NCBI GenBank assembly: GCA_050331235.1
Contig: JBHJHA010000046.1
Coordinates: forward strand, 1 to 64,000
Reading direction: 5' to 3'
Origin: Leptolyngbyaceae cyanobacterium
GTDB lineage: Bacteria; Cyanobacteriota; Cyanobacteriia; Phormidesmidales; Phormidesmidaceae
Length of the DNA stretch: 64,000 bases
A program made the position numbers and the translations under genes. Below the pieces are notes generated by a model. It searched no databases. It was not told the origin of the DNA and saw nothing but the letters and a program-made list of their open reading frames with translations. Positions 2,567 to 24,233 of the stretch are shown in pieces (within the stretch, counting starts at the first letter, position 1; each line of letters starts with the position of its first letter).

Positions 2567-3919
2567 ATGCTTGCGGAAGATGCCCTGGCCTTGCTTGATC
2601 GCCTCTTGCCGACGCCCCTCAGCAACTTACAAGAGACGGTCTTTTGTCAGGTTTGGGAAGACAAAACCTATGCTGAAATTGCTGACGAATACAGCTACGA
2701 ACACAGCTACATCCGGGATATTGGCTTTCGACTATGGCAAATGCTGTCTGAGGCTTTGGGCGAAAAAGTCTCCAAAAGCAATGTCAAAGCAGTACTCGGT
2801 CGACATGCCCGGACCCAAGCAAAAGCGCCCCGCCAGGTTACGCCCCCAGCTGCTGATACCGCTCCCCTTCACCCCTTAACAAGAGCTACGGTTGAGTTTC
2901 CCAATGGTCCAGTACCACTCAATTCCCGCCTGTATATCGGGCGGCCTCCCATCGAAGCCCGTACCTTTGCAGAGGTGCTCAAACCCGGTAGCTTGATTCG
3001 GCTGAAAGGACCTCGACAAATGGGCAAAACATCTTTGCTGAAGCGTATTCTCCACCATGCCAAGTCCCACGGCATCGAGGTAGTACCCCTCAGTCTGCAC
3101 CGGGTCGATCAGGTGACGCTGCAAGCCTTGGACCCGTTTTTGCGTTGGTTTTGTGCCAATGTAAGCTACCAACTCGGTATTCCGCCCCGACTCGATGACT
3201 ATTGGAATGCAGATATTGGGAGCAAAGTCAGCTGCACTCTTTACTTTGAGGAATATCTGCTGAAGCAGCTACAACAGCCCATCGTGATCGCCCTGGATGA
3301 AGTCAGCGAGCTGTTTCAGTTCTCACAAATTTCCGCTGAGTTTTTACCGCTGCTGAGATCGTGGTATGAAGACGCCAAGGAAATTGAAGAATGGCGAAAA
3401 ATTCGCTGGATTCTTTCCCATGCGACGGATATCTATGTGCCCCTCCAGATTAAGCAATCTCCTTTTAACGTTGGGCTGTCCATTCCCTTACCAGAGTTTT
3501 CGATTTTCCAAATTCAAGACTTAGTCGAACGACATGGTTTAGAAGATCTCCTCGGAGCTGACGGGATGAGCACGCTGATGCCACTTCTTGAGGTCATCAG
3601 CTGTCGTCCCGGCTTAGTCCGATTAGCGCTCTATCACCTCAGTCAGCAACACATGGGTGTCCAAGAGCTAATTGCCCATGCCCATACTCAGTCGGGTATT
3701 TACAGTGACCACTTGCGCCACTTATTAGCGGCTATTCACCCTTACAAAGAGTTGCAATCTGCATTGTTGAAGGTCATTGGGGCGCAGGAGCCCATTGAGT
3801 TGCAACCCATAATTGCGTATCGCCTAGAGAGTATTGGTCTGATTAAATTAGAAGGCAATCGCGCTACGGTGAGTTGCGGCCTCTATGGCCAGTTTTTCTC
3901 GCAATATTTGTCTCAGTGA
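2567..3919 (+). CDS. N-terminal winged-helix + AAA-like (AAA_35) P-loop NTPase
   Basis: LSNLQETVF..W..KTYAEIA..Y...YIRDIG..LW..LS..LGEKVSK wHTH; Walker A GPRQMGKTS; Walker B IALDEV; SPFNVG motif. Confidence 0.85.
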   Translation: MLAEDALALLDRLLPTPLSNLQETVFCQVWEDKTYAEIADEYSYEHSYIRDIGFRLWQMLSEALGEKVSKSNVKAVLGRHARTQAKAPRQVTPPAADTAPLHPLTRATVEFPNGPVPLNSRLYIGRPPIEARTFAEVLKPGSLIRLKGPRQMGKTSLLKRILHHAKSHGIEVVPLSLHRVDQVTLQALDPFLRWFCANVSYQLGIPPRLDDYWNADIGSKVSCTLYFEEYLLKQLQQPIVIALDEVSELFQFSQISAEFLPLLRSWYEDAKEIEEWRKIRWILSHATDIYVPLQIKQSPFNVGLSIPLPEFSIFQIQDLVERHGLEDLLGADGMSTLMPLLEVISCRPGLVRLALYHLSQQHMGVQELIAHAHTQSGIYSDHLRHLLAAIHPYKELQSALLKVIGAQEPIELQPIIAYRLESIGLIKLEGNRATVSCGLYGQFFSQYLSQ

Positions 3920-4150
3920 ATGCCGACTCGTCCTGTCCTGCCTCAAGTAGCGCAGATATAGCTTTGCTGATCTGGAGAAACCAATGAAACGATGGCGTGA
4001 TATGACGCTTTTGACGTCGTCTAATGCTGTCTGTGACTCTATGACCGACTTATCAAGCTCGCTACACCGTCAGAACGGATATGTCTGTATGCCTGCACCG
4101 ACGAAAGTGCTTCCTCTGTAAGTAGTCTAGTCAGCACCCCACGAATAATG

Positions 4151-5293
4151 TCATTGCTCTCTCTGAAAAATATTTTGGTTTAGCGATTTTCCCGTCTCTT
4201 GATTAAGAGTTGAGAGCAGACTAAAGCCTCCTAAAACGACTGCAGCAGCCCACATGCAGCCGTCAATCAGTAGGGAGGTTGTACCTTTCACAGAAGGTTT
4301 GATAAAGGATGCTGTTCCACTGCCATTTAACCTTAGGGCAAGGTGTATGGCTCCGACAGCCATCGCAAAGACTAAAGCACCTTTAATGAGGTTTGAAAAC
4401 AAACTGCCATACCTCAATCTACCTTCTCGTAGAAGTGGATATAGGAAGAAACAAGAATAGACAGGAATGTGATGACTAAATGGAATATTCAGAATCAAGA
4501 GATTAGCCAAATGAAATATACAGGCCATTAATAACCAAGCTTTCCAAAAACGTGCTCCAGCGAGCAAGCATAAAAAAGGTGTAAGCTCTAAAAAAACAGC
4601 AGAATAGTCCATTAGCTCTAGGAGCCAAGAGGGAATGTAGAAAACAAAGTCTGATAAGAGAAACTGTCTGCCGATGTTGAAATAGCCTGGGTAGAACCAA
4701 CTAAGAAATCCATTCGTACTTAAGTCGAAGTCAAGCCAGTTTTGATATTTCTCATAGCCTGCTGTAAACATTCCGAACGATAAGATAATACCTAGCATCG
4801 CTAGAGCTGTTTTATGAGATCGCACGGTTTTTTCCGGTAATAAGGCATTGTCAGTACCCCAGTTAGAAAAAGACATACACAGCAACGTTGCCCAGATCAT
4901 CACATCATGGTCAATTTTCCCAAAGCTGTATTGAAAAGACCTCCCAATCCAATATACAAGTACAAGCGCCAGCCCTGATATTCTTGAGCGAATTCCTACG
5001 GTAACAAACACCATGAGTAAGACGATCAATATATCTAAAGTGAAGAATAACGCTGGCGGAGGAAAGCCTGAAGCTAGCCTTGAAAAACTGAATAGCGGCG
5101 GATCGAAGAAGCTACCTGGAGCCTCCGAAATCCACCCGAAACTGGCTAAACCAAAGACCAGAAAATACAAACCAAAGAATATCCGAAAAATTGAGCTATG
5201 CCAAGTCGGCATGAATGTTGAACTTTGAATTCTGGTTAACAATGCCCCAATAAATTTATCTATTGATATGACAAGTCTATTAATAAAACTCAT
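4151..5293 (-). CDS. HTTM-domain (vitamin K-dependent carboxylase/SdpB-like) membrane protein
   Basis: FRIFFG N-motif, SFGKIDHD, FTAGYEKYQNW, FHLANLLILNIPF; many TM helices; AT-rich. Confidence 0.75.
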   Translation of the reverse strand: MSFINRLVISIDKFIGALLTRIQSSTFMPTWHSSIFRIFFGLYFLVFGLASFGWISEAPGSFFDPPLFSFSRLASGFPPPALFFTLDILIVLLMVFVTVGIRSRISGLALVLVYWIGRSFQYSFGKIDHDVMIWATLLCMSFSNWGTDNALLPEKTVRSHKTALAMLGIILSFGMFTAGYEKYQNWLDFDLSTNGFLSWFYPGYFNIGRQFLLSDFVFYIPSWLLELMDYSAVFLELTPFLCLLAGARFWKAWLLMACIFHLANLLILNIPFSHHIPVYSCFFLYPLLREGRLRYGSLFSNLIKGALVFAMAVGAIHLALRLNGSGTASFIKPSVKGTTSLLIDGCMWAAAVVLGGFSLLSTLNQETGKSLNQNIFQREQ

Positions 5294-5859
5294 AATTCAT
5301 AACGCTCCTCATCAACAATACCCTTTTCAAAAACTTCCCTTGAACCAATATCAACAGCCATGGTAGTCCTTCTTATAATAAAAAAATTCTCTTCACATCC
5401 TTGGCTGGCAAGCCTTTCCTTCAACCAAGCCTTTGTCTCCAAAATATTTTCGGCGCTCAAAGCAGTAGCTGGTGGCTTCATGTATTTGAAGCTTGGAAAA
5501 ATATTTTTTCTGAAGTTTACTTCCAACTCTTTACTGTTTTCTAAGCCAAACTTATTGTTTACAATCCTAGAAAAGTAGCGTGGCGGAATGGGATACATAA
5601 ACTCTGCAACGACCTGCTTTTCTAACTCATTAGTTTTTAGACTCTTACAATAAACACTTGTAGTGTTAAATTCAAAAGTGTTGCTATCAGTCTCTACTCT
5701 GCTAGCACCTGCAGGGAATATAATGGCTGGATAAGGCTCTTTATTGTGATTTAAATACTTAAACGTATATGGGAAAATAATGAGCATTCCCAGAAGAAGA
5801 GTTGCTGCAACGCGTCTGTATCTATCAATAAGTGATCTACCGTTTCTGCTTTCTTCCAT
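5290..5859 (-). CDS. Hypothetical single-TM protein, partner of the HTTM gene
   Basis: One N-terminal TM followed by EPYPAIIFP; stop overlaps the HTTM start (ATGA at 5293-5290); AT-rich. Confidence 0.7.
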   Translation of the reverse strand: MEESRNGRSLIDRYRRVAATLLLGMLIIFPYTFKYLNHNKEPYPAIIFPAGASRVETDSNTFEFNTTSVYCKSLKTNELEKQVVAEFMYPIPPRYFSRIVNNKFGLENSKELEVNFRKNIFPSFKYMKPPATALSAENILETKAWLKERLASQGCEENFFIIRRTTMAVDIGSREVFEKGIVDEERYEL

Positions 5860-6135
5860 ATTATGATGATGTACTTTATGAAACGACCGAAGCTGATTGA
5901 TTCAAGAATTAGCTTGCTAATGAGCACTATCCAGCAAACTAAGGCAAAACCTCAAAGTTGACGAGGCTTCACTTTATTTGCCTTAGTATGCCCATTAGAT
6001 CGTTGCCGTCAACAAAGGATTTAAAAGTCTGCTTTGTTTGAAGAAGAGATAAAGCCTTTTAAGATTAGTGGAATTAGTCTTTATCTTAGGAGCGTGCATT
6101 GTTGTATCGATAGAGAGCCATATGCTGATACCAAT

Positions 6136-6711
6136 TCAATTTGAGGATGCACTTAATACAGCATTGGTAATGAAGTCCCATCCCGTCACTGAGCGAATCA
6201 CGTCTTTGGTCATTTCTGACAAGACCTCTTGGACTCGCTGACGCAGCGCCTTCAGATTCTTGAAGATTTCCCACTGCAAAGGCGTCTTGAGATGTTTCCA
6301 GAAACGCTCAATCGGATTGACTTCGGGGGTATAGGCCGGTTGAAATAGCGGAATGATATTCTCCGGCCAGTCAATTTCCTGAGCCCAGTGAGCGCTGGCT
6401 TGATCCATCTGAACAACCACCACATCCTCCGCATAGCGAGCCGCAAACTGATGAATAAACTGCTCAAAGTGCTCACTATTGAGATGGTCAAATTGCTCAA
6501 AATAGCTCTCGCCCGTCAGGGGTTCGACCAGACCATAAAGCCAGAAGGTGGAACGTCCCCATTGATAGCGCCCTTCCGGTTTGACGCCTTTCAGCGTAAT
6601 CACTCGCCCGCTCAGGGTCAGTAATCCCCAGCCGCTCTCGTCCTGACAAAAGTAGCGCAGGGGCGTGTCGGCTTCGACGAACTCTTGTAAGACCTCTAGA
6701 GCGAGGGGCAA
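6136..6711 (-). CDS. IS630 transposase ORF B (DDE domain), reached by a -1 shift at TTTAAAAAAAC
   Basis: FCQDESG, QMDQASAH and PAYTPEVNPIE catalytic motifs. Confidence 0.85.
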   Translation of the reverse strand: MPLALEVLQEFVEADTPLRYFCQDESGWGLLTLSGRVITLKGVKPEGRYQWGRSTFWLYGLVEPLTGESYFEQFDHLNSEHFEQFIHQFAARYAEDVVVVQMDQASAHWAQEIDWPENIIPLFQPAYTPEVNPIERFWKHLKTPLQWEIFKNLKALRQRVQEVLSEMTKDVIRSVTGWDFITNAVLSASSN

Positions 6712-7196
6712 GTTTTTTTAAACTGCTCAATCGTCCCAGGGGTCTGCTTGTGATGGCTGGGACGCGGCACTTTCAGCTTCGCGTTCAACTCGTAGCGCAC
6801 AATCCGATACACCGTTTTGTAGTCCACCTCCACCTGGCACTCCTGCCGCAACCATTGCCAAATCGCCTGATAACTGGAAAATCCGGTCGGTTCGGCTAAG
6901 CGCGCTTGAAGTTGTGCTATCACCTCAGGAGAAATGACCCGAGCGGCCCCTGGGGCCGTCTTAATCTCTAGCAACTGGCGAATGCCACCGGCTCGATAAT
7001 CGTTGAGCCAACGAGTCACCGTTGAGTCATCGCGATTGAGCAATTGTGCGATTTGTTGGCGACTGCTGACCAATCCACGCTTCAGCCAATACAGCATTTG
7101 CAGCCGTTCCTGTTGGCGGGCATCCGTTTCATGCTGTAATCGTTGCTCGAGTTCTTCGCCGCTTTCGGCGATCGTGATCGTCAACGGGCGAGCCAT
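6696..7196 (-). CDS. IS630 transposase ORF A (HTH domains)
   Basis: ERLQMLYWLK, STVTRWL..YR.GG, LKVPRPSH, ends at FKK. Confidence 0.85.
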   Translation of the reverse strand: MARPLTITIAESGEELEQRLQHETDARQQERLQMLYWLKRGLVSSRQQIAQLLNRDDSTVTRWLNDYRAGGIRQLLEIKTAPGAARVISPEVIAQLQARLAEPTGFSSYQAIWQWLRQECQVEVDYKTVYRIVRYELNAKLKVPRPSHHKQTPGTIEQFKKTCPSL

Positions 7197-7560
7197 CTCT
7201 GCTTTCCTCCAATACACCGGGCTTTAGGGTAGGATGCGCTCAGCTCTAAAAGGCTATTATTAAGCGCAGCGTTACAGAGTATTGGTATGAGAATGGAGAA
7301 AACAAGAAAAGTTCAAGTGACTGGCAGACGTTCCTGAGTACCTCGGGGCACCAGATGTTTGACTTCGACCGTAGCGTTTTTGGCTAATGGCTTTATCGCC
7401 TTGCCGAGCTCGGATGCTGTTGACACACCCCTTCCAAAAACAGCCCTATGTCAGATTTGAATTGTCATGAATACATAACCATAAATATTGCAAAGATCAG
7501 GTGGTACTTAAAGATCAAGCCAGGTACCACTAGCAATCAAAAGCCCGTTGACTCTATAAC

Positions 7561-11012: not shown

Positions 11013-12077
<1,065 letters not shown>

Positions 12078-12263
12078 AGGGCTGACACTCCAAATATTGT
12101 CCGGCCTATAGTACCCAAAGGCTGAATGAAGCAGGATATAATCGCCGTAATCTTTTGTTTACATTCGGAAGCAATTCTTTGGGATCGTTTCCAAACCTTC
12201 TCAACTGGGGGGACCTGGGCGTGGTTGAAGCATTTCCCCAGCACACGTTATCGATGAGGATTT

Positions 12264-13676
12264 ATGTCGCCGTCTGTACAACCCCCACTCCACCCCGCAA
12301 AAACCACCTCTACACCACAGACAGTCCCCCCCTCAGACCCCTCATCCACCACTAGCGCTGCCCACTCTAGTCAAAATCCGGTTTGGCAGTCGGCCCTACC
12401 GTGGCTGCGCCGACTGGCTTGGACGGGTCTCTTTGGCAGTACGGCGATCGCTGCGGCAGTCGGTGGAGCCCTGTTTGCCTCCACCGTGCCCTTGCCCGAC
12501 TGGCTCGCCCCTAAAGCGAGCCAGCCATTAAACCTTGCTGACCTTTGGCAAACGGGCTTTCGGTATCAAGTTACCCGCCCGGTCAACTTATTAGTGATGG
12601 GCGTCGACCTCCCAGAACCAGGACAAGACGATGGCGATACACTGTTCTCTGGCCGCTCTGACACGATGCTGATGGTGCGCGTCAACCCCGAAGACGGCAC
12701 CGTGGGGTTACTTTCCATTCCCCGAGATACCCGGGTCAACATTCCTGGTGAAGGCGTCGCCAAAATTAACCATGCCAACTTTGCCGGGGGACCTGAGCTG
12801 GTCGCCCAAACGATCCAGTCCAACTTGGGACCCGTCCCCCTTGATCGCTACGTGGTGGTCAGCACGGGTGCCCTGCGAGAACTGGTTGACCTATTGGGTG
12901 GTGTAGAAGTCAATGTGCCCCAGCGTATGGTGTACCAAGACGTGACCCAAGGGCTAAATATCGATTTGGAGCCTGGTTGGCAAACCCTTAATGGGGATCA
13001 AGCTGAGCAGTTTGCTCGGTATCGCGGCGATGGTAACGGTGATATTGGCCGGGTGCAGCGCCAGCAGATGCTGATGAAAGCACTACGAGAGCGACTGACC
13101 CATCCGACGGTAATTCCCCGGTTGCCCCAGGTCATGCGGGTGATGATGCGCTACGTCGAGACTAATCTGACGCTAGAAGAAATCTTGGCCCTAGCCAATG
13201 TCGCCATGGAAATTGAACCGCAGAGCCTCCAGATGGTGATGCTGCCGGGTCGATTTAGCACGCCTAGCGAATACGTTGCGAGTTACTGGATTCCTGATGA
13301 GACCGCGACTCAGCAAGTTTTAAATAACTTTTTTCAGCTAGACGAAGTGACTCTGCTAGCGGGGCAAGACAGTCGCGCCATGACCAGCTTACCAATCGCG
13401 GTGCAAAACGCCTCCGGAGAGCCCCGCATTGCTCAAGCGGTGGCCCGCTACCTCCGCCAAGAAGGGTTTCGCAACGTTTATATTGTTAGTGACTGGTCGA
13501 GTGAGCTGCAGCGGACTCAAGTGATTGCCCAGCGGGGCGACTTGGAAAGTGCTGACCTGATGACCTCCATTCTCGATGTGGGGCGGGTGGTTGCCGACTC
13601 CACTGGCGATTTAGAATCTGAACTGACCATTCGCGTGGGGCGAGACTGGCTGATGCGGACCCCCGATGTTCAGTAG
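12264..13676 (+). CDS. LCP (LytR-CpsA-Psr) family protein with C-terminal LytR_C domain
   Basis: N-terminal TM; GRSDTML, SIPRDT, FARYR..GDIGRVQRQQ; VQNASG...IRVGRDW. Confidence 0.92.
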   Translation: MSPSVQPPLHPAKTTSTPQTVPPSDPSSTTSAAHSSQNPVWQSALPWLRRLAWTGLFGSTAIAAAVGGALFASTVPLPDWLAPKASQPLNLADLWQTGFRYQVTRPVNLLVMGVDLPEPGQDDGDTLFSGRSDTMLMVRVNPEDGTVGLLSIPRDTRVNIPGEGVAKINHANFAGGPELVAQTIQSNLGPVPLDRYVVVSTGALRELVDLLGGVEVNVPQRMVYQDVTQGLNIDLEPGWQTLNGDQAEQFARYRGDGNGDIGRVQRQQMLMKALRERLTHPTVIPRLPQVMRVMMRYVETNLTLEEILALANVAMEIEPQSLQMVMLPGRFSTPSEYVASYWIPDETATQQVLNNFFQLDEVTLLAGQDSRAMTSLPIAVQNASGEPRIAQAVARYLRQEGFRNVYIVSDWSSELQRTQVIAQRGDLESADLMTSILDVGRVVADSTGDLESELTIRVGRDWLMRTPDVQ

Positions 13677-18705: not shown

Positions 18706-20187
18706 CTAGGCTGCCTGGGGGGTCCACACAGATACGGAACCCGCCTCACAGGGAAACTCAGCCCAGCCGTGCTCGTTGGTGGTGACTGGGTTGGCAATAT
18801 GCTCTGTAATGTCGACGTACGTTTGATGGGGCTGTCCCGTTTCCATCCATTTGACGCCGCGATCGCCGTTACTCAGGACCACTGCCATCCCTCCCGGATG
18901 CTCTGCATTGCCTAGTCGCGTCCAGCCAATGGTGCTCGGATGATCAAAATAGTCATATTGCTCACCATAGGCGTAGTGCTGACGGGCTAGCAAAAACTTT
19001 TCAATCAGCCAGCGGTGACTGTCTAGCCACACTTCATGTTCATTACCGTCATCCCCCTCATCTGTATAGTGAGCCCTGTAGTAGTCAGCGTAAAAAATGC
19101 AGGGGTAGCCGTCTTGCCGCAGCAAAATCAAGGCATAGGCTAAAGGCTTAAACCACGGCTCCACCACTGACTCCAAGGACTGCAACGGCTGCGAATCATG
19201 ATTATCTACCAAAGTCACTGCCAAGGCAGGCTGCTGCTTGACCAAGGTGTGATCGAAAATTGTTCTCAGATCGTAATTTTCGCCGGCATTACTCGCCTCA
19301 CAAAAGTTGTAGTGCAGCGGCGCATCAAATAGGTGGACGTCGCCCCCCGTGGTCTCGATGAAAAAGTGAAGAGCCTCAATCTCGTAAGACCAATATTCGC
19401 CCACGGCAAATAGGCGACGCCCGGCAGTGCGGCGGCAGTGATTGAGCCATTCAGGAAAGAAGCCTGCCTCGACGTGCTTGACAGCGTCAAAGCGAAAACC
19501 GTCTATATCTGTCGTGTCGACATACCAAGCTCCCCACTCCTTTAAGGCATCACGGACTTCCTCGGACTCCATGTCCAGGTCGCACCCCATGAGATAGTCA
19601 AAAGCCCCTTTTTCAAGATCTACGTTGTCGTCAAATGACTTGCCCTCAAACAGATAAACGGCGTCAAACTCGGGATTGTTTTCGTCATAGTCAACGCCAT
19701 CAAAGTGCCACCAGTGCCATTCCATATCGCTATATTTGCGATCGCGCCCAGCAAACTTGAAGTGAGTCCAAACCTTAATCGTGCGGGGTTCACCAACGGC
19801 TTCCATCCGATTCTCTGGATCAAAGGGGGTCGCGGTGACTTCTTCCGGGGCGTCGCCGCCTAGCATATGGTTAAAAACAATGTCCGCATACACGCGAATC
19901 CCGGCCGCCTTTGCTGCCTGAATGGCCTGCAAATATTGAGCCTTTGTGCCGTACTTAGTGCGAGTGCTGCCCTTTTGGTCAAACTCACCTAAATCGTACA
20001 AATCGTAGACGCTATAGCCGACGTCATAACCGCCACTCGCACCTTTGTAAGCCGGTGGAAACCAAATCGAGGTAATGCCAATATCCGCCAGTTCTTGGGC
20101 ATTTTGAACGAACTCGTTCCACAACTCTCCATTGGCAGGGGTGTACCAATGAAAGTACTGCATCATCACGCCATTAGGCTCAGACAT
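18706..20187 (-). CDS. amyA: Cytoplasmic alpha-amylase (GH13, AmyA-like)
   Basis: NGVMMQYFHWY, DLYDLGEFDQKGS.RTKYGT, DGFRFDAVKH, VGEYW, VDNHDSQP. Confidence 0.92.
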   Translation of the reverse strand: MSEPNGVMMQYFHWYTPANGELWNEFVQNAQELADIGITSIWFPPAYKGASGGYDVGYSVYDLYDLGEFDQKGSTRTKYGTKAQYLQAIQAAKAAGIRVYADIVFNHMLGGDAPEEVTATPFDPENRMEAVGEPRTIKVWTHFKFAGRDRKYSDMEWHWWHFDGVDYDENNPEFDAVYLFEGKSFDDNVDLEKGAFDYLMGCDLDMESEEVRDALKEWGAWYVDTTDIDGFRFDAVKHVEAGFFPEWLNHCRRTAGRRLFAVGEYWSYEIEALHFFIETTGGDVHLFDAPLHYNFCEASNAGENYDLRTIFDHTLVKQQPALAVTLVDNHDSQPLQSLESVVEPWFKPLAYALILLRQDGYPCIFYADYYRAHYTDEGDDGNEHEVWLDSHRWLIEKFLLARQHYAYGEQYDYFDHPSTIGWTRLGNAEHPGGMAVVLSNGDRGVKWMETGQPHQTYVDITEHIANPVTTNEHGWAEFPCEAGSVSVWTPQAA

Positions 20188-20436
20188 GACTCAAGTCCTT
20201 AAAAAACTAGTCCATTAATATCGCAGGAAAAATCGTATTGCTCAATCGTCCTTTAGATACATAGTTCTTCATGGAAAGCTATTTTGAGCTGCTATAAATA
20301 GCTGAATTTACCTGGCCTGGTAAAGTTTTTTGGGGAAGCCTAGATCACACTTTCATTTATACAAAACGATAGATACATCACACTTGAACTACACCATATG
20401 CTAAACAGGCTGGAAGTTCTGACTGGGAGATGGCTC

Positions 20437-20601
20437 ATGTTAAAATTCACGCTTTTGTTTTTGATCGTTGCAATTGTGGCCGCAATTTTTGGATTTGGCG
20501 GTATTGCGGCTGGAGCAGCAAGTATTGCTAAGGTTTTATTCTTTATTTTCTTGGCGTTGTTTGTAGTTTCCCTCGTTATGCGCTTAGTAAGAGCTGCGTA
20601 A
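20437..20601 (+). CDS. DUF1328 (UPF0391/YtjA) small membrane protein
   Basis: [39 protein letters not shown]. Confidence 0.92.
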
Positions 20602-20623
20602 CGAATCTCTGATTTAAAGAAGG

Positions 20624-20660
20624 AGCCCCTGCAGATTTCAAAAATCTGCAGGGGCTTTTG
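20624..20660 (+). terminator. Rho-independent terminator of the DUF1328 gene
   Basis: AGCCCCTGCAGATTT / AAATCTGCAGGGGCT stem followed by TTT. Confidence 0.8.
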
Positions 20661-20728
20661 TCTGTTTGGCAATGCTTTATTAAGTGCCCATTGACCGTCC
20701 ACTTGAGCCGAAAGATGAGCAGCAAATC

Positions 20729-21178
20729 CTAAAGCTCATCAAGGGGAAATTCCTTGTGTAGCTGCTTGCATTTCTCTTTTAAAAGTCCACTTTCAATTTT
20801 GTATTCAGCGGGCGATCGCCGAAATACCTCTTCACAGCGCAGGTCAATCATGTTAGGATTACTATTCTCAAAATCATCATTGCCGACGCCATATATAATG
20901 TGGTGAATGCCCGCCCACAAACAGGTTGCTGCACACATGGGACAGGGTTCGCAAGTTGTGTAAAGTGTGTAAGTGCCTGGGGGAGAAGCATTTTCCATCC
21001 GTTTGGTGAGCTGTCGGATGGCGTTGACCTCAGCATGACAGGTCGGATCATGGTCGGAGTGAACGGTGTTGCCGCACTGGACAACAACTTCATGATCATT
21101 GACGATGACAGCTCCGAAAGGGGTTTCACTTTTTTGGGCTTCCGCGATCGCCAAGCGCATAAATTTTTCGTCAGACAT
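20729..21178 (-). CDS. Nucleoside deaminase (TadA/guanine deaminase-like, Zn-dependent)
   Basis: PFGAVIV, DPTCHAEVNAIR, EPCPMC. Confidence 0.9.
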   Translation of the reverse strand: MSDEKFMRLAIAEAQKSETPFGAVIVNDHEVVVQCGNTVHSDHDPTCHAEVNAIRQLTKRMENASPPGTYTLYTTCEPCPMCAATCLWAGIHHIIYGVGNDDFENSNPNMIDLRCEEVFRRSPAEYKIESGLLKEKCKQLHKEFPLDEL

Positions 21179-21220
21179 CAATATTTACTCACCCATCACT
21201 GTTTGAAAGGAATATACCGT

Positions 21221-21250
21221 AAAAAAAGAGGCGAAAGCTTCGCCTCTTTC
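21221..21250 (-). terminator. Rho-independent terminator of csbD
   Basis: AAAGAGGCGAA / TTCGCCTCTTT stem with a T-run on the minus strand. Confidence 0.8.
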
Positions 21251-21273
21251 AGAACTAACTTAGAAAAAAACAA

Positions 21274-21456
21274 TTAGTCAACTGCTTTCTTGACCTGATC
21301 TTTCACATTTTCCTTGCTGTGCTCGGCTTGAGCTTCTACTTGCTTAGCCTTGCCTTCTGCTTCATCGGAAGGATTGCCGGCCAAATCGCCGACGGTCTCT
21401 TGTACTTTACCTTCGACGTTCTTAGCAGTTGCTTCTACTCTATCTTCGATACCCAT
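21274..21456 (-). CDS. csbD: CsbD family stress protein
   Basis: MGIEDRVEATAKNVEGKVQETVG...EAEGKAKQ. Confidence 0.9.
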   Translation of the reverse strand: MGIEDRVEATAKNVEGKVQETVGDLAGNPSDEAEGKAKQVEAQAEHSKENVKDQVKKAVD

Positions 21457-21640
21457 ATGATTAAAGTCCTCTCTAATCAAGCTACGTTTTACATTTTAGA
21501 AAACGGCTGCTTTGGTTACCTCTGCCTCCAGGAACATCCCAACCAACCACATATTATTTCGATGGGTACATTCTGGCCTGGCTTCGTTCAGTTTAAGATT
21601 GCCAGAGCGAAAAATTGCCATCGTTTAATGACAGCCACGA

Positions 21641-22987
21641 TTAGCTGGCGACGCTAAAAATTTCCTCTGCTGCGGTGGGATGGATGCCGACAGTTCTAAA
21701 CAGCTCCGTTGAGGTGAGGCCTCGCCGCAGGGCCGGAATCAATCCTTGCAGCATGTTGGGCGCTTGATCACCGGCCATGTGAACGCCTACAACTTGCTCG
21801 GTTTGGCGATCAATTACTAGCTTGATCAGTGACTGCTGGGGGGTGGGCAACAGACTGTGACTCAGAGGCACAAATGTATGGCACTGGGTTTGCACGTTGT
21901 CTGCGCCTAATTTGTCTTGGGCCATCGCCTCTGACCAGCCCACGGTGGCAACAAACGGGGCGCCAAAAACCGCCGAAGGAATCCAGCGATAATCGACTGC
22001 AATCGGTTGCCGCTGGCAAATGGTTCGGGCAACGGCTTCGCCCTCGGCGATCGCTACTGGAGTTAGGGGCAGCCGCTCAACGCAATCTCCTACAGCATAA
22101 ATATTGGGCTGTGAAGTTTGGCCATAGGCATCGGCAACGATCTTGCCATCGCTGACTTGGACGTTGGCGCGCTCCAAATTGAGCCGTGATAGATTGGGCG
22201 ATCGCCCCACCGCAAACAAAATTTCATCGGCGGTGATTGCTGTTTTCGTAGAGCCAGTCAGAGAGAGGACCTTGTGGTCAGCTGCCTGGCGCACCGCGGC
22301 GCAGCGGGACTCCGCAATAAATTTCACCCCCAATGCTTGCAATCCCTCCTGAACCGCCGATCGCAGCGTAGGGTCAAACCCGCTCAGCACTTGCTTATCC
22401 GTGTCAATTAGCGTTACCTGGGTGCCGAGCAGCACCAAAATATGACTAAACTCGAACCCGATGTATCCTCCACCGACGACAGCCATATGTTTAGGCAGGG
22501 TCGTGAGCTGAAACATATCGGGGGAGGTCAACACCAGATCTTGTCCTTCCATATCTGGCACAATTGGCGCGCCCCCCACAGCAATCACCACATGGTGAGC
22601 GGTTACTTGGCAGTCGTTGATGGTGAGCTGATGGGCATCAATGAACTGGGCCGTGCCACGTAAGATATCAATGCCTGCTTCGGTTAAGGTTTCTTGCTGA
22701 GACTGTCGAATCTGGCTGATGTGATCCTGAATGGCAGTTTGCAGGGCTTGCCAGTTGAGCGATGCCGGGGTGTCGTCCCAGTGAAAGGATTGGGCGACCT
22801 TTTGTTGGGAGGCAAAACTAGCGGCATTGACCATGAGCTTTTTGGGCACACAGCCGCGATTGACACAGGTGCCACCAAGGGCGCGGGACTCCGCGATCGC
22901 GACTGTGGCACCCAAGCTGGCAGCTTGCTTGGCGGTGGCGAGTCCGCCAGAGCCCCCACCAATTACCAAAATGTCGTAGTCAGCCAT
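21641..22987 (-). CDS. Glutathione reductase-like pyridine nucleotide-disulfide oxidoreductase
   Basis: GGGSGG, GGTCVNRGCVPKK, GGGYIG, YAVGDC, LTPVAI, HPTAAEE. Confidence 0.85.
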   Translation of the reverse strand: MADYDILVIGGGSGGLATAKQAASLGATVAIAESRALGGTCVNRGCVPKKLMVNAASFASQQKVAQSFHWDDTPASLNWQALQTAIQDHISQIRQSQQETLTEAGIDILRGTAQFIDAHQLTINDCQVTAHHVVIAVGGAPIVPDMEGQDLVLTSPDMFQLTTLPKHMAVVGGGYIGFEFSHILVLLGTQVTLIDTDKQVLSGFDPTLRSAVQEGLQALGVKFIAESRCAAVRQAADHKVLSLTGSTKTAITADEILFAVGRSPNLSRLNLERANVQVSDGKIVADAYGQTSQPNIYAVGDCVERLPLTPVAIAEGEAVARTICQRQPIAVDYRWIPSAVFGAPFVATVGWSEAMAQDKLGADNVQTQCHTFVPLSHSLLPTPQQSLIKLVIDRQTEQVVGVHMAGDQAPNMLQGLIPALRRGLTSTELFRTVGIHPTAAEEIFSVAS

Positions 22988-23075
22988 GTCGATTCCCAGT
23001 CTCTCCACACGTAATTGGCGACATGTTTAGAGTAGAGAAAATTTGAGTCGGAAAACTCAGCCAGGAGAAATATCT

Positions 23076-24233
23076 CTACTTCATAACGGGCTTTTGGACG
23101 GGTAAAAACAGGGTAAAGGTGCTGCCTTGGCGGGGCTGTGAAGACACATCGATAAACCCTTGATGCATTTGAGCAATCCGCCCCGCTAGGTGTAGCCCTA
23201 AGCCACTACCAGCCCGGCGCTGGGTTCCCTGACGAAACCAAGCAAAAATTTCTGCTTCCTCTGACTCGGAGATGCCAATACCGGTATCAATGACCTGAAC
23301 GGATAGCCACGATTTGGCTCTTTGGCCCCCAACCCCTGTCAAATTGGGGGGCGGTTGCTCGGAGTGGTCAAGCTGCACGAGGATATGGCCCTCATCGGTG
23401 AATTTAAGAGCATTGCCAATGAGATTGGTTAACACTCGGCGCAATTCCATCACGTCTCCGAGCATCTCGTAGGGGGCCGTATCGGTGATTGTGGTTCCTT
23501 GGCGATCGCTCAGCTTAAGGGTCAGATTTTTCTCAGCGGCTAGCGGTTTGAGCTCACTCACGACTGCCGCCGCAATGTCATAGAGATTAAGGGGGATAAT
23601 GGTTAGTGACTTATGGCCCGAATCGTGACGATAAACTTCCAGCAGCGTGTTGACCATAGACAGGAGCTGCTCGTTATTTTGCATCGTTTCGGTCAGGGCT
23701 TCTTTAGCCCCATCGGCAACGGGACCAAACGACTCATTTTTGCAAAAGGACAGCATGCGATTGGCCGCGACCAAAGGCGTGCGTAAATCGTGGGTGAGAC
23801 GGGCAACAAAATCGTCGCGCTGGCGCAGCATGTAAGCCTGACCATCCATTGCCTCTCTCATGCGCAGCAGCGATCGCACTCGCGCCTGCAATTCATCAAT
23901 ATCAAACGGCTTGCGAATGAAGTCATCGGCACCGGCATCGAGCCCTTCCACCAAGCTGACGTGATCGTGGGCCGTCAGCAGTAGGATGGGGACATAGGGC
24001 AATTCTGCTGCTCCCCGCACGCGTCGGGTGACTTCATAGCCATCCATGCCCGGCATCATGATGTCGAGCAGCAGCAGATCCGGAGGGTGATCGCCAATTT
24101 GGGCGATCGCGGCTTCTCCAGACTTGGCAAAGCTCAACTGATATTCGTCAAGATCTAAAATCGTTTCAATAAGAAATAAGTTATCGGGAGAATCATCAAC
24201 GGCAAGAATATGCTTGGGTTGCGCTTTATCCAT
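23076..24233 (-). CDS. Hybrid REC-histidine kinase
   Basis: VDDSPDN, PDLLLLDIMMP, FIRKP; THDLRTPL, NLIGNALKF, DTGIGI, GSGLGL. Confidence 0.93.
   Translation of the reverse strand: MDKAQPKHILAVDDSPDNLFLIETILDLDEYQLSFAKSGEAAIAQIGDHPPDLLLLDIMMPGMDGYEVTRRVRGAAELPYVPILLLTAHDHVSLVEGLDAGADDFIRKPFDIDELQARVRSLLRMREAMDGQAYMLRQRDDFVARLTHDLRTPLVAANRMLSFCKNESFGPVADGAKEALTETMQNNEQLLSMVNTLLEVYRHDSGHKSLTIIPLNLYDIAAAVVSELKPLAAEKNLTLKLSDRQGTTITDTAPYEMLGDVMELRRVLTNLIGNALKFTDEGHILVQLDHSEQPPPNLTGVGGQRAKSWLSVQVIDTGIGISESEEAEIFAWFRQGTQRRAGSGLGLHLAGRIAQMHQGFIDVSSQPRQGSTFTLFLPVQKPVMK

Follow-up and report, generated by a model that had tools for sequence, protein, structure and literature searches.

The 64,000-nucleotide stretch of DNA analysed here (the window), from a Leptolyngbyaceae cyanobacterium, carries two overlapping genes whose products are predicted to work like a vitamin K-dependent carboxylase (GGCX) split in two and which, by the tests described below, fall outside GGCX itself, SdpAB, the linaridin systems and the DUF5819 pair. 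The fold, the conservation of the active site, the coupling of the two genes and their enrichment in polysaccharide clusters come directly out of the computation. I propose, recognizing that the proposal falls a little short of probable, that the two proteins are the halves of one GGCX-fold enzyme that uses a naphthoquinol, works on the periplasmic side of the membrane and alters a surface polysaccharide, likely at the proton beside a uronate carboxyl. The subfamily and its link to polysaccharide genes do not appear in the literature covered; the split architecture is known.

The gene pair and its insertion site

Both genes lie on the minus strand. The gene for the small subunit (5290..5859; ORF 5859-5290, 189 aa) runs into that for the large subunit (4151..5293; ORF 5293-4151, 380 aa) through an ATGA stop/start overlap at 5290..5293, which, to judge from sequence, is consistent with translational coupling of both. 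GC content is 0.37 in the small gene and 0.41 in the large, as against 0.53 for the window, whose lowest-GC 1.7-kb stretches begin at 4101-4701. The window has 99 HIP1 sites but 0 between 2041 and 8019, the longest gap. Since the chance of a HIP1-free stretch of 1.7 kb at the mean spacing is about 0.07, the lack of HIP1 in the pair is mild evidence only. An earlier note on this DNA had described two AT-rich, HIP1-free genes overlapping by ATGA beside an IS630 element, and had taken them to be horizontally acquired. The description is accurate in each particular, and the horizontal origin is upheld.

The pair is an accessory insertion. A block upstream of it (FMN reductase, an AAA_35 gene and, in two cases, a ZIP-like gene) is common to three genomes of the same genus up to 3917-3920, beyond which gene content differs in each of the three. 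Of 13 other genomes in the genus just 1 has a match, at another site and with a DNA identity of 72%; in the family the figure is 32 of 173 genomes, a count that takes in weak paralogues. A contig from a possible source run matches 3000-5679 with 0 differences and is not independent support. The variable site spans 3920-7560; its flanking blocks are present separately in genomes of the genus, never joined, and the downstream genes differ. A scan of the locus for promoters and terminators gave results at chance level. The listed runs containing window DNA include no RNA runs; they carry the label stromatolite metagenome and come from one study, which may be the source. Beyond tex, 5-8 kb from the pair (11013-13676), lie a mannose-1-phosphate guanylyltransferase-like gene and a LytR-CpsA-Psr gene, which are probably resident.

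One might suspect the IS630 element (about 6123..7288, minus strand), some 260 bp upstream, of having carried the pair. It can be ruled out: there is a single element, it is present on one side of the pair only, its ends recur elsewhere in the genome (it is multicopy), and across the loci surveyed it is not a recurring neighbour of the pair's relatives. The IS630 is therefore an incidental neighbour. Its two ORFs (7217-6696 and 6711-6136, minus strand), both matched by NF033545, join at an A7C run, the overlap (6696-6730) lying at the run TTTAAAAAAAC, the usual kind of programmed frameshift site. In run X1 its contig depth is 4- to 6-fold higher.

The large subunit has the fold and the catalytic Lys of GGCX

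Pfam and NCBIfam scans give 0 matches for the large subunit. The 380-aa protein does not reach the gathering score of PF05090 (HTTM), and it finds no match in the PDB either by sequence or with a 46-row profile. PF05090 matches 3 of 46 homologues at E up to 0.1 (best 2.6e-7), and kinship with the HTTM superfamily holds by profile and by modelled fold. The AlphaFold2 model has a pLDDT of 93.6. A Foldseek search with it, a check proposed in the earlier note, returns GGCX in all of the top 15 rows (best E 2.2e-4). By VIA the model aligns with human GGCX over 274 residues (Z 14.3, rmsd 4.8; next unrelated fold 7.5), and in a screen of 48,161 chains GGCX alone exceeds Z 8. The chain carries two additional C-terminal helices. 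It is helical throughout to its end, with 0 Pfam matches, and does not contain the lumenal propeptide-binding domain.

Residues were mapped in two steps, from the family profile to six bacterial GGCX-like proteins (profile-profile probability 97.3, E 1.8e-11) and from one bacterial GGCX-like protein to human GGCX (E 2e-47, numbering offset 31). By this chain K182 (4748..4750, minus strand) corresponds to catalytic K218 of GGCX and H129 to H160 of the Glu pocket, and D128 puts an Asp at the place of N159. W186 corresponds likewise to W223, A178 to A214, A232 to G259, E236 to D263, F260/H261 to F286/H287, N264 to N290 and L268 to F294. F272 aligns at M298/F299, one position off the CO2-stacking F299. 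GGCX Y395 is without a clear counterpart; the EPYP motif of the small subunit falls there by eye and by predicted contact only. The roles of the GGCX residues (K218, H160, N159, W223, N290, A214, G259, F286, F294, F299) are those given in the accessible text of bioRxiv 10.1101/2025.02.09.637231 and PMC12647623.

Three motifs had been lined up with GGCX by eye in the earlier note, and they are as described: GKIDH (residues 125-129; 4907..4921, minus strand), which includes H129, D128 and the nearly invariant K126; FTAGYEK..W (residues 176-186 of the large subunit, minus strand); and FHLAN (residues 260-264; 4502..4516, minus strand), equivalent to GGCX F286-N290, part of the vitamin K pocket. 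The note had been ready to give up the comparison should the His and Lys lie off the GGCX site. By profile alignment both lie on it.

Conservation tells the same story. Among 137 homologues, collected independently and without a motif pattern, K182 is kept in 136, W186 in 137, H261 in 137 and E236 in 136, H129 in 130, D128 in 125 and K126 in 129. The spacing from the H129 motif to the next is the same 21 residues in 61 of the 78 sequences in which the two could be located. The quinone side of the site has thus stayed intact; the change, at N159, is on the substrate side. The family has no conserved Cys pair or metal-binding set. Its size is considerable: 2659 clusters at E<=0.001 and 783 clusters (50% identity) at E <1e-30.

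Lys/Arg-rich loops alternate along the large subunit, which places H129, K182 and F272 outside and the C-terminus inside. The active site is accordingly predicted to be on the outer face of the membrane, and in a cyanobacterium that face could also be the one towards the thylakoid lumen.

The small subunit and the predicted complex

The small subunit begins with one membrane helix (about residues 10-36) and continues as an exported alpha/beta domain (model pLDDT 87), much as the earlier note had it. EPYP, residues 41-44 (5728..5739, minus strand), belongs to a conserved motif, E-P-[YF]-P-A-x-x-x-P-x-G; in the aligned partners E41 is found in 58 of 60 and P44 in 60 of 60. Pfam and NCBIfam give 0 matches for the small subunit, and none of the family profiles is passed by any of the 60 aligned partners. 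Its fold has no match in the PDB (Foldseek best E 0.065; VIA best Z 4.0), which does not prove a new fold. Nor does the partner profile significantly match SdpA, DUF5819, the paralogous partners or the GGCX-like C-terminal part, in what are small alignments.

Prediction of the pair as a complex, another check proposed earlier, gives a score of 0.85 against 0.00 for the best of three controls, a score that may reflect likeness rather than binding, since solved single-chain GGCX resembles the complex. The mark used for such scores is reached by 116 of 157 solved complexes and by 2 of 215 mismatched pairs. Runs share at least 95% of their contacts, with a partner pLDDT of at least 83. Residues 40-58 of the partner are predicted to lie on helix 173-186 and on loop 124-129 (GKIDH) of the large subunit, so that EPYP touches the catalytic helix. 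In the model the proteins form a heterodimer with an outward-facing site, which EPYP would close, and the small subunit would stand in for the last membrane helix, the linker and one lumenal lobe of GGCX. The earlier reading of the pair as a split membrane enzyme holds, at the level of a model, through the complex prediction and the coupling of the genes.

The two genes travel together

Relatives were gathered by pattern scans containing GKIDH, which gave 78 genome loci (from the best 80 of 109 confirmed) and 80 metagenome loci (the best 80 of 104). To be testable a locus needed a called ORF for the large subunit and no less than 700 bp of sequence upstream, a rule that dropped 38 of the 158. 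The partner is found directly upstream of the large-subunit gene in 118 of the 120 that remain, in many phyla, although this count is circular in part, most of the partner profile having come from the genome loci. Failure of the two genes to co-occur in other genomes had been named at the outset as grounds for abandoning the idea; co-occurrence is close to universal in these loci. In 47 of 57 loci the GC content of the pair falls below that of the flanking DNA, and transposases or integrases lie beside few of them, as judged by Pfam scans of selected neighbours.

Some loci have two copies of the pair, in tandem (L039 and L055) or opposed (L070). One protein of 545 aa (P0127) reads as partner and HTTM in one chain. 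It was not counted as a fusion: its middle reads like a frameshift artefact, possibly one of assembly.

Comparison with known systems

The large subunit shares with GGCX the membrane fold, K218, H160, W223, F286/H287, N290, the small tunnel residues and, as predicted, a non-cytoplasmic site. The pair differs in being split into two chains, in doing without the propeptide-binding lumenal domain and in the change of N159 to Asp. The substrate of GGCX is Glu of peptides, whereas a glycan is a candidate only for that of the pair.

SdpA and SdpB likewise consist of a small partner gene followed by an HTTM gene, with a similar catalytic Lys region. Yet SdpA (PF17418) and SdpB (TIGR04033) match 0 of 60 partners and do not match the large subunit, and the profiles of the pair match SdpA at 0.7% and four SdpB proteins at 15% (small samples). 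These four SdpB proteins have GGDQ, without His at the place of H129, where the window family has KIDH. SdpAB also has an adjacent SdpC-type precursor, and the window pair is without one.

Linaridin proteins H and L are proposed to act together as an epimerase, again an HTTM protein working with a small partner. The linaridin set of precursor, hydrolase, decarboxylase and methyltransferase does not travel with the window pair. That linaridin clusters contain an HTTM gene is reported in the accessible part of PMC9927463, and PMC10373908, likewise in part, offers grmL as a precedent for epimerisation.

Another close design is the DUF5819 + HTTM-DCC1 pair of Melghirimyces thermohalophilus, predicted to rebuild GGCX (bioRxiv 10.64898/2026.08.19.745780, accessible text). 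In common with the window pair, so far as that text goes, are adjacent genes, a single-helix small partner and an HTTM protein, along with the conserved Lys, Trp and Phe, extra C-terminal helices and, in some relatives of the window pair, a link to DCC1; the window pair, as modelled, also has the split architecture and a predicted heterodimer. DUF5819 itself (PF19136) matches 0 of 60 partners of the window family, the profile match being 0.25% for the partner and 76.5% for the large subunit. The HTTM proteins linked to DUF5819 (three aligned) have GGDN where the window family has KIDH. The dataset of that preprint may include the window family. In its accessible text the word polysaccharide has 0 occurrences, and no substrate or link to polysaccharide is given.

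The earlier note had thought the pair its strongest candidate for an undescribed system. As to the split design this goes too far, to judge from the accessible parts of bioRxiv 10.64898/2026.08.19.745780, PMC9927463, PMC10373908 and PMC10849128, where it is in print. As to the subfamily and its polysaccharide link the claim stands: the literature covered on bacterial HTTM, linaridin, SdpB and DUF5819, from which most subscription journals and the bioRxiv supplements fall outside, connects no such pair with polysaccharides.

Polysaccharide genes and the search for a precursor

The GT2 and GT4 profiles used for all loci were rebuilt from genes of this genome. Two or more GT genes are present at 21 of 78 genome loci (18 of 60 among those of at least 13 kb) and 13 of 80 metagenome loci, compared with 1 of 60 controls, these being 17-kb stretches from 30 host genomes that were hand-picked, lie mostly on large contigs and are blind to insertion hot spots. 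GT density per 100 kb is 6.0 at genome loci, 8.5 at metagenome loci, 0.88 in controls and 1.29 in this whole genome. Dereplication at 60% identity leaves 79 groups, of which 54 have a long locus; at least two GT2/GT4 genes occur in 20 of these 54 against 1 of 60 controls (Fisher p 6e-7), and in 8 of 30 genome-matched loci (p 5e-4). On a quick tree read by eye, loci labelled as GT clusters turn up on a dozen or more separate branches. Many of the pairs are embedded in clusters of the Wzx/Wzy or Wzm/Wzt kind that also encode pyruvyl-, sulfo-, acyl- and amidotransferases, according to Pfam scans that took in 287 and 134 selected neighbours rather than every ORF.

The association is uneven. There are 0 GT2/GT4 genes at 27 of the 54 dereplicated loci; the locus in the window and its three nearest relatives lie outside GT clusters; and of the 16 long loci in Cyanobacteriota just 3 have two GT genes or more. 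A GT situated no further than about 600 bp from the pair shares its orientation in only 11 of 16 cases (p 0.21). One locus (L037, genome G205) was counted as without GT. Polysaccharide clusters are known hot spots for incoming DNA. At L002, among the nearest relatives, the gene directly upstream is a sulfotransferase.

No SdpC-like precursor had been visible near the pair in the earlier note, and none is present in the window or common to the relatives: among 514 candidates, 0 short ORFs are common to groups. At one SdpAB locus retrieved with all three genes (L264), a precursor-like ORF is adjacent. The neighbourhood survey that the note had recommended thus yields polysaccharide genes and no precursor, and of the exported peptide, protein or glycan that it left as alternative substrates, the glycan is favoured.

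Redox neighbours and the supply of quinone

A CrtO/CrtI-like FAD oxidoreductase is present in 16 loci and a DCC1-like protein in 8, each against 0 of 60 controls. Directly adjacent to the pair are the FAD oxidoreductase in 9 of 79 groups, DCC1 in 7 and GMC in 1. The best score of the FAD neighbour is to the carotenoid ketolase CrtO, far under the cut-off. DCC1 is fused to the C-terminus in three relatives (L058, P0145, P0183) and lies just downstream of the pair in the nearest relative. It is absent at the window locus, with no remnant downstream of the pair, so the locus lost DCC1 or never had it. Elsewhere in this genome are three DCC1-like matches, and the genome also has MenB and a VKOR-family gene; for the FAD oxidoreductase the queries used found nothing past the nucleotide-binding motif. 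MenB is present in 41 of 50 host genomes tested and also in 7 of 14 control genomes. Candidates for the bacterial recycling of spent quinone are found in the DCC1 and flavoprotein neighbours. No locus has both, but about one overlap would be expected by chance, so mutual exclusion cannot be read from this. A single pair (L047:9323-13448) stands directly upstream of menF-menD-menH, co-oriented, and genes of the homogentisate phytyltransferase type are one-off neighbours at L040 and L007.

This genome also has a distant paralogous pair (G000:C36:44204-48630, or L115:10205-14631; profile match 99.7%), which ends a run of GT2, GT4, Wzm, Wzt and GMC genes; after it come a DCC1 fusion of HTTM-like type, an NDH-2-like flavoprotein and two DoxX-like genes. 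The paralogous pair keeps the catalytic Lys and is missing the His.

A proposed reaction and its rivals

K182 and the quinone pocket argue for quinol chemistry like that of GGCX, and the polysaccharide genes for a glycan substrate; relatives so often found among surface-sugar genes make a polysaccharide likelier than a protein. The pair would act as one GGCX-fold enzyme, its likely cosubstrate being the reduced naphthoquinone of the host, phylloquinol or menaquinol. If GGCX is a guide, K182 would deprotonate the quinol, and the oxygenated quinol would be a strong base able to take a proton from the carbon next to a carboxylate that H129 and K126 hold in place. The most plausible source of that proton would be C5 of a uronic acid, either in a nascent chain or in a lipid-linked repeat unit. 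To our knowledge C5 of a uronate, beside the carboxyl, is the only sugar position with the chemistry of the Glu gamma-carbon. The weakest step is the outcome. GGCX excludes water, avoiding protonation, and requires N159 for activity (PMC12647623, accessible text). The Asp at the place of N159 might serve as a proton source in the pocket, and the conserved Glu of the partner nearby would also favour re-protonation, making C5 epimerisation somewhat likelier than addition of CO2. The quinone would be recycled on the cytoplasmic side by a DCC1-like dithiol protein or an FAD oxidoreductase, supplied in this genome from elsewhere.

It may be, though I put this clearly short of probable, that the pair is a mobile and widespread two-gene cassette for the epimerisation or carboxylation of uronates in capsules and exopolysaccharides, driven by phylloquinol or menaquinol and with interchangeable DCC1 or flavin partners. 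In the literature covered, GGCX-fold chemistry is tied to peptides, and a polysaccharide would be a new class of substrate. A branch of bacterial proteins, large and unannotated, points that way, its members retaining the catalytic Lys and His and travelling with polysaccharide genes. If the idea is true, a glycan epimerase or carboxylase driven by quinol would open a new way of making exopolysaccharides charged or flexible. In stromatolites the carboxyl groups of polymers matter for calcium binding.

On an alternative view the substrate is an exported protein or peptide whose gene lies elsewhere, modified by Glu/Asp carboxylation as in GGCX and MloH or by epimerisation of the kind put forward for linaridin clusters, and polysaccharide clusters are simply where mobile DNA lands. 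All relatives described in the accessible literature do act on peptide-type substrates, and the equivalents of H160 and K218 are kept. Half the loci are without GT, many sitting among housekeeping genes, and orientation to the nearest GT is not significantly biased. I nevertheless find this doubtful. A search of 514 short ORFs gave no shared precursor, whereas the SdpAB locus retrieved with all three genes has its candidate next door; Asp replaces N159; the GT enrichment is strong and recurs on separate branches; and the Pfam scans of selected neighbours put transposases or integrases beside few loci.

It is unlikely that the pair is a quinone-linked redox module that forms no carbanion, passing electrons between the quinone pool and a substrate on the outer face (oxidizing a sugar hydroxyl, for example) with DCC1, FAD or GMC oxidoreductases. 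Few groups, about 16 of 79, have a redox neighbour; the family conserves neither a Cys pair nor a metal-binding set; and K218 of GGCX serves oxygenation rather than simple electron transfer (bioRxiv 10.1101/2025.02.09.637231, accessible text). What speaks for such a module is that the redox neighbours recur, that conservation is higher at K182, W186, H261 and E236, on the quinone side, than in the residues of the substrate side, that distant paralogues keep the Lys and mostly lose the His, and that GMC, DCC1-fused, NDH-2-like and DoxX-like genes are gathered at this genome's paralogous locus. As the substrate, a lipid of the membrane or an isoprenoid (prenylquinone, carotenoid glycoside, glycolipid) is very improbable: the resemblance of the FAD neighbour to CrtO and the menF-menD-menH and phytyltransferase loci would fit it, but neighbours of lipid type are one-offs, and the enrichment is in polymer clusters of the Wzx/Wzy and Wzm/Wzt types.

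Paralogues and single-chain relatives

Other forms of these genes were met along the way. One locus (L116; G043:C55, about 19000-24100) has three tandem pairs of paralogous partner and HTTM genes, adjoining an acsF-like gene, and at L109, L110 and L113 single related copies lie between an M48 peptidase and an acsF-like gene. Bacteroidota (L079-L084) have a full-length, single-chain GGCX-like protein with the equivalents of N159, H160 and K218, its gene adjoining one for an imelysin-like lipoprotein or a ribF-like gene, and some of these genomes also carry the split pair.
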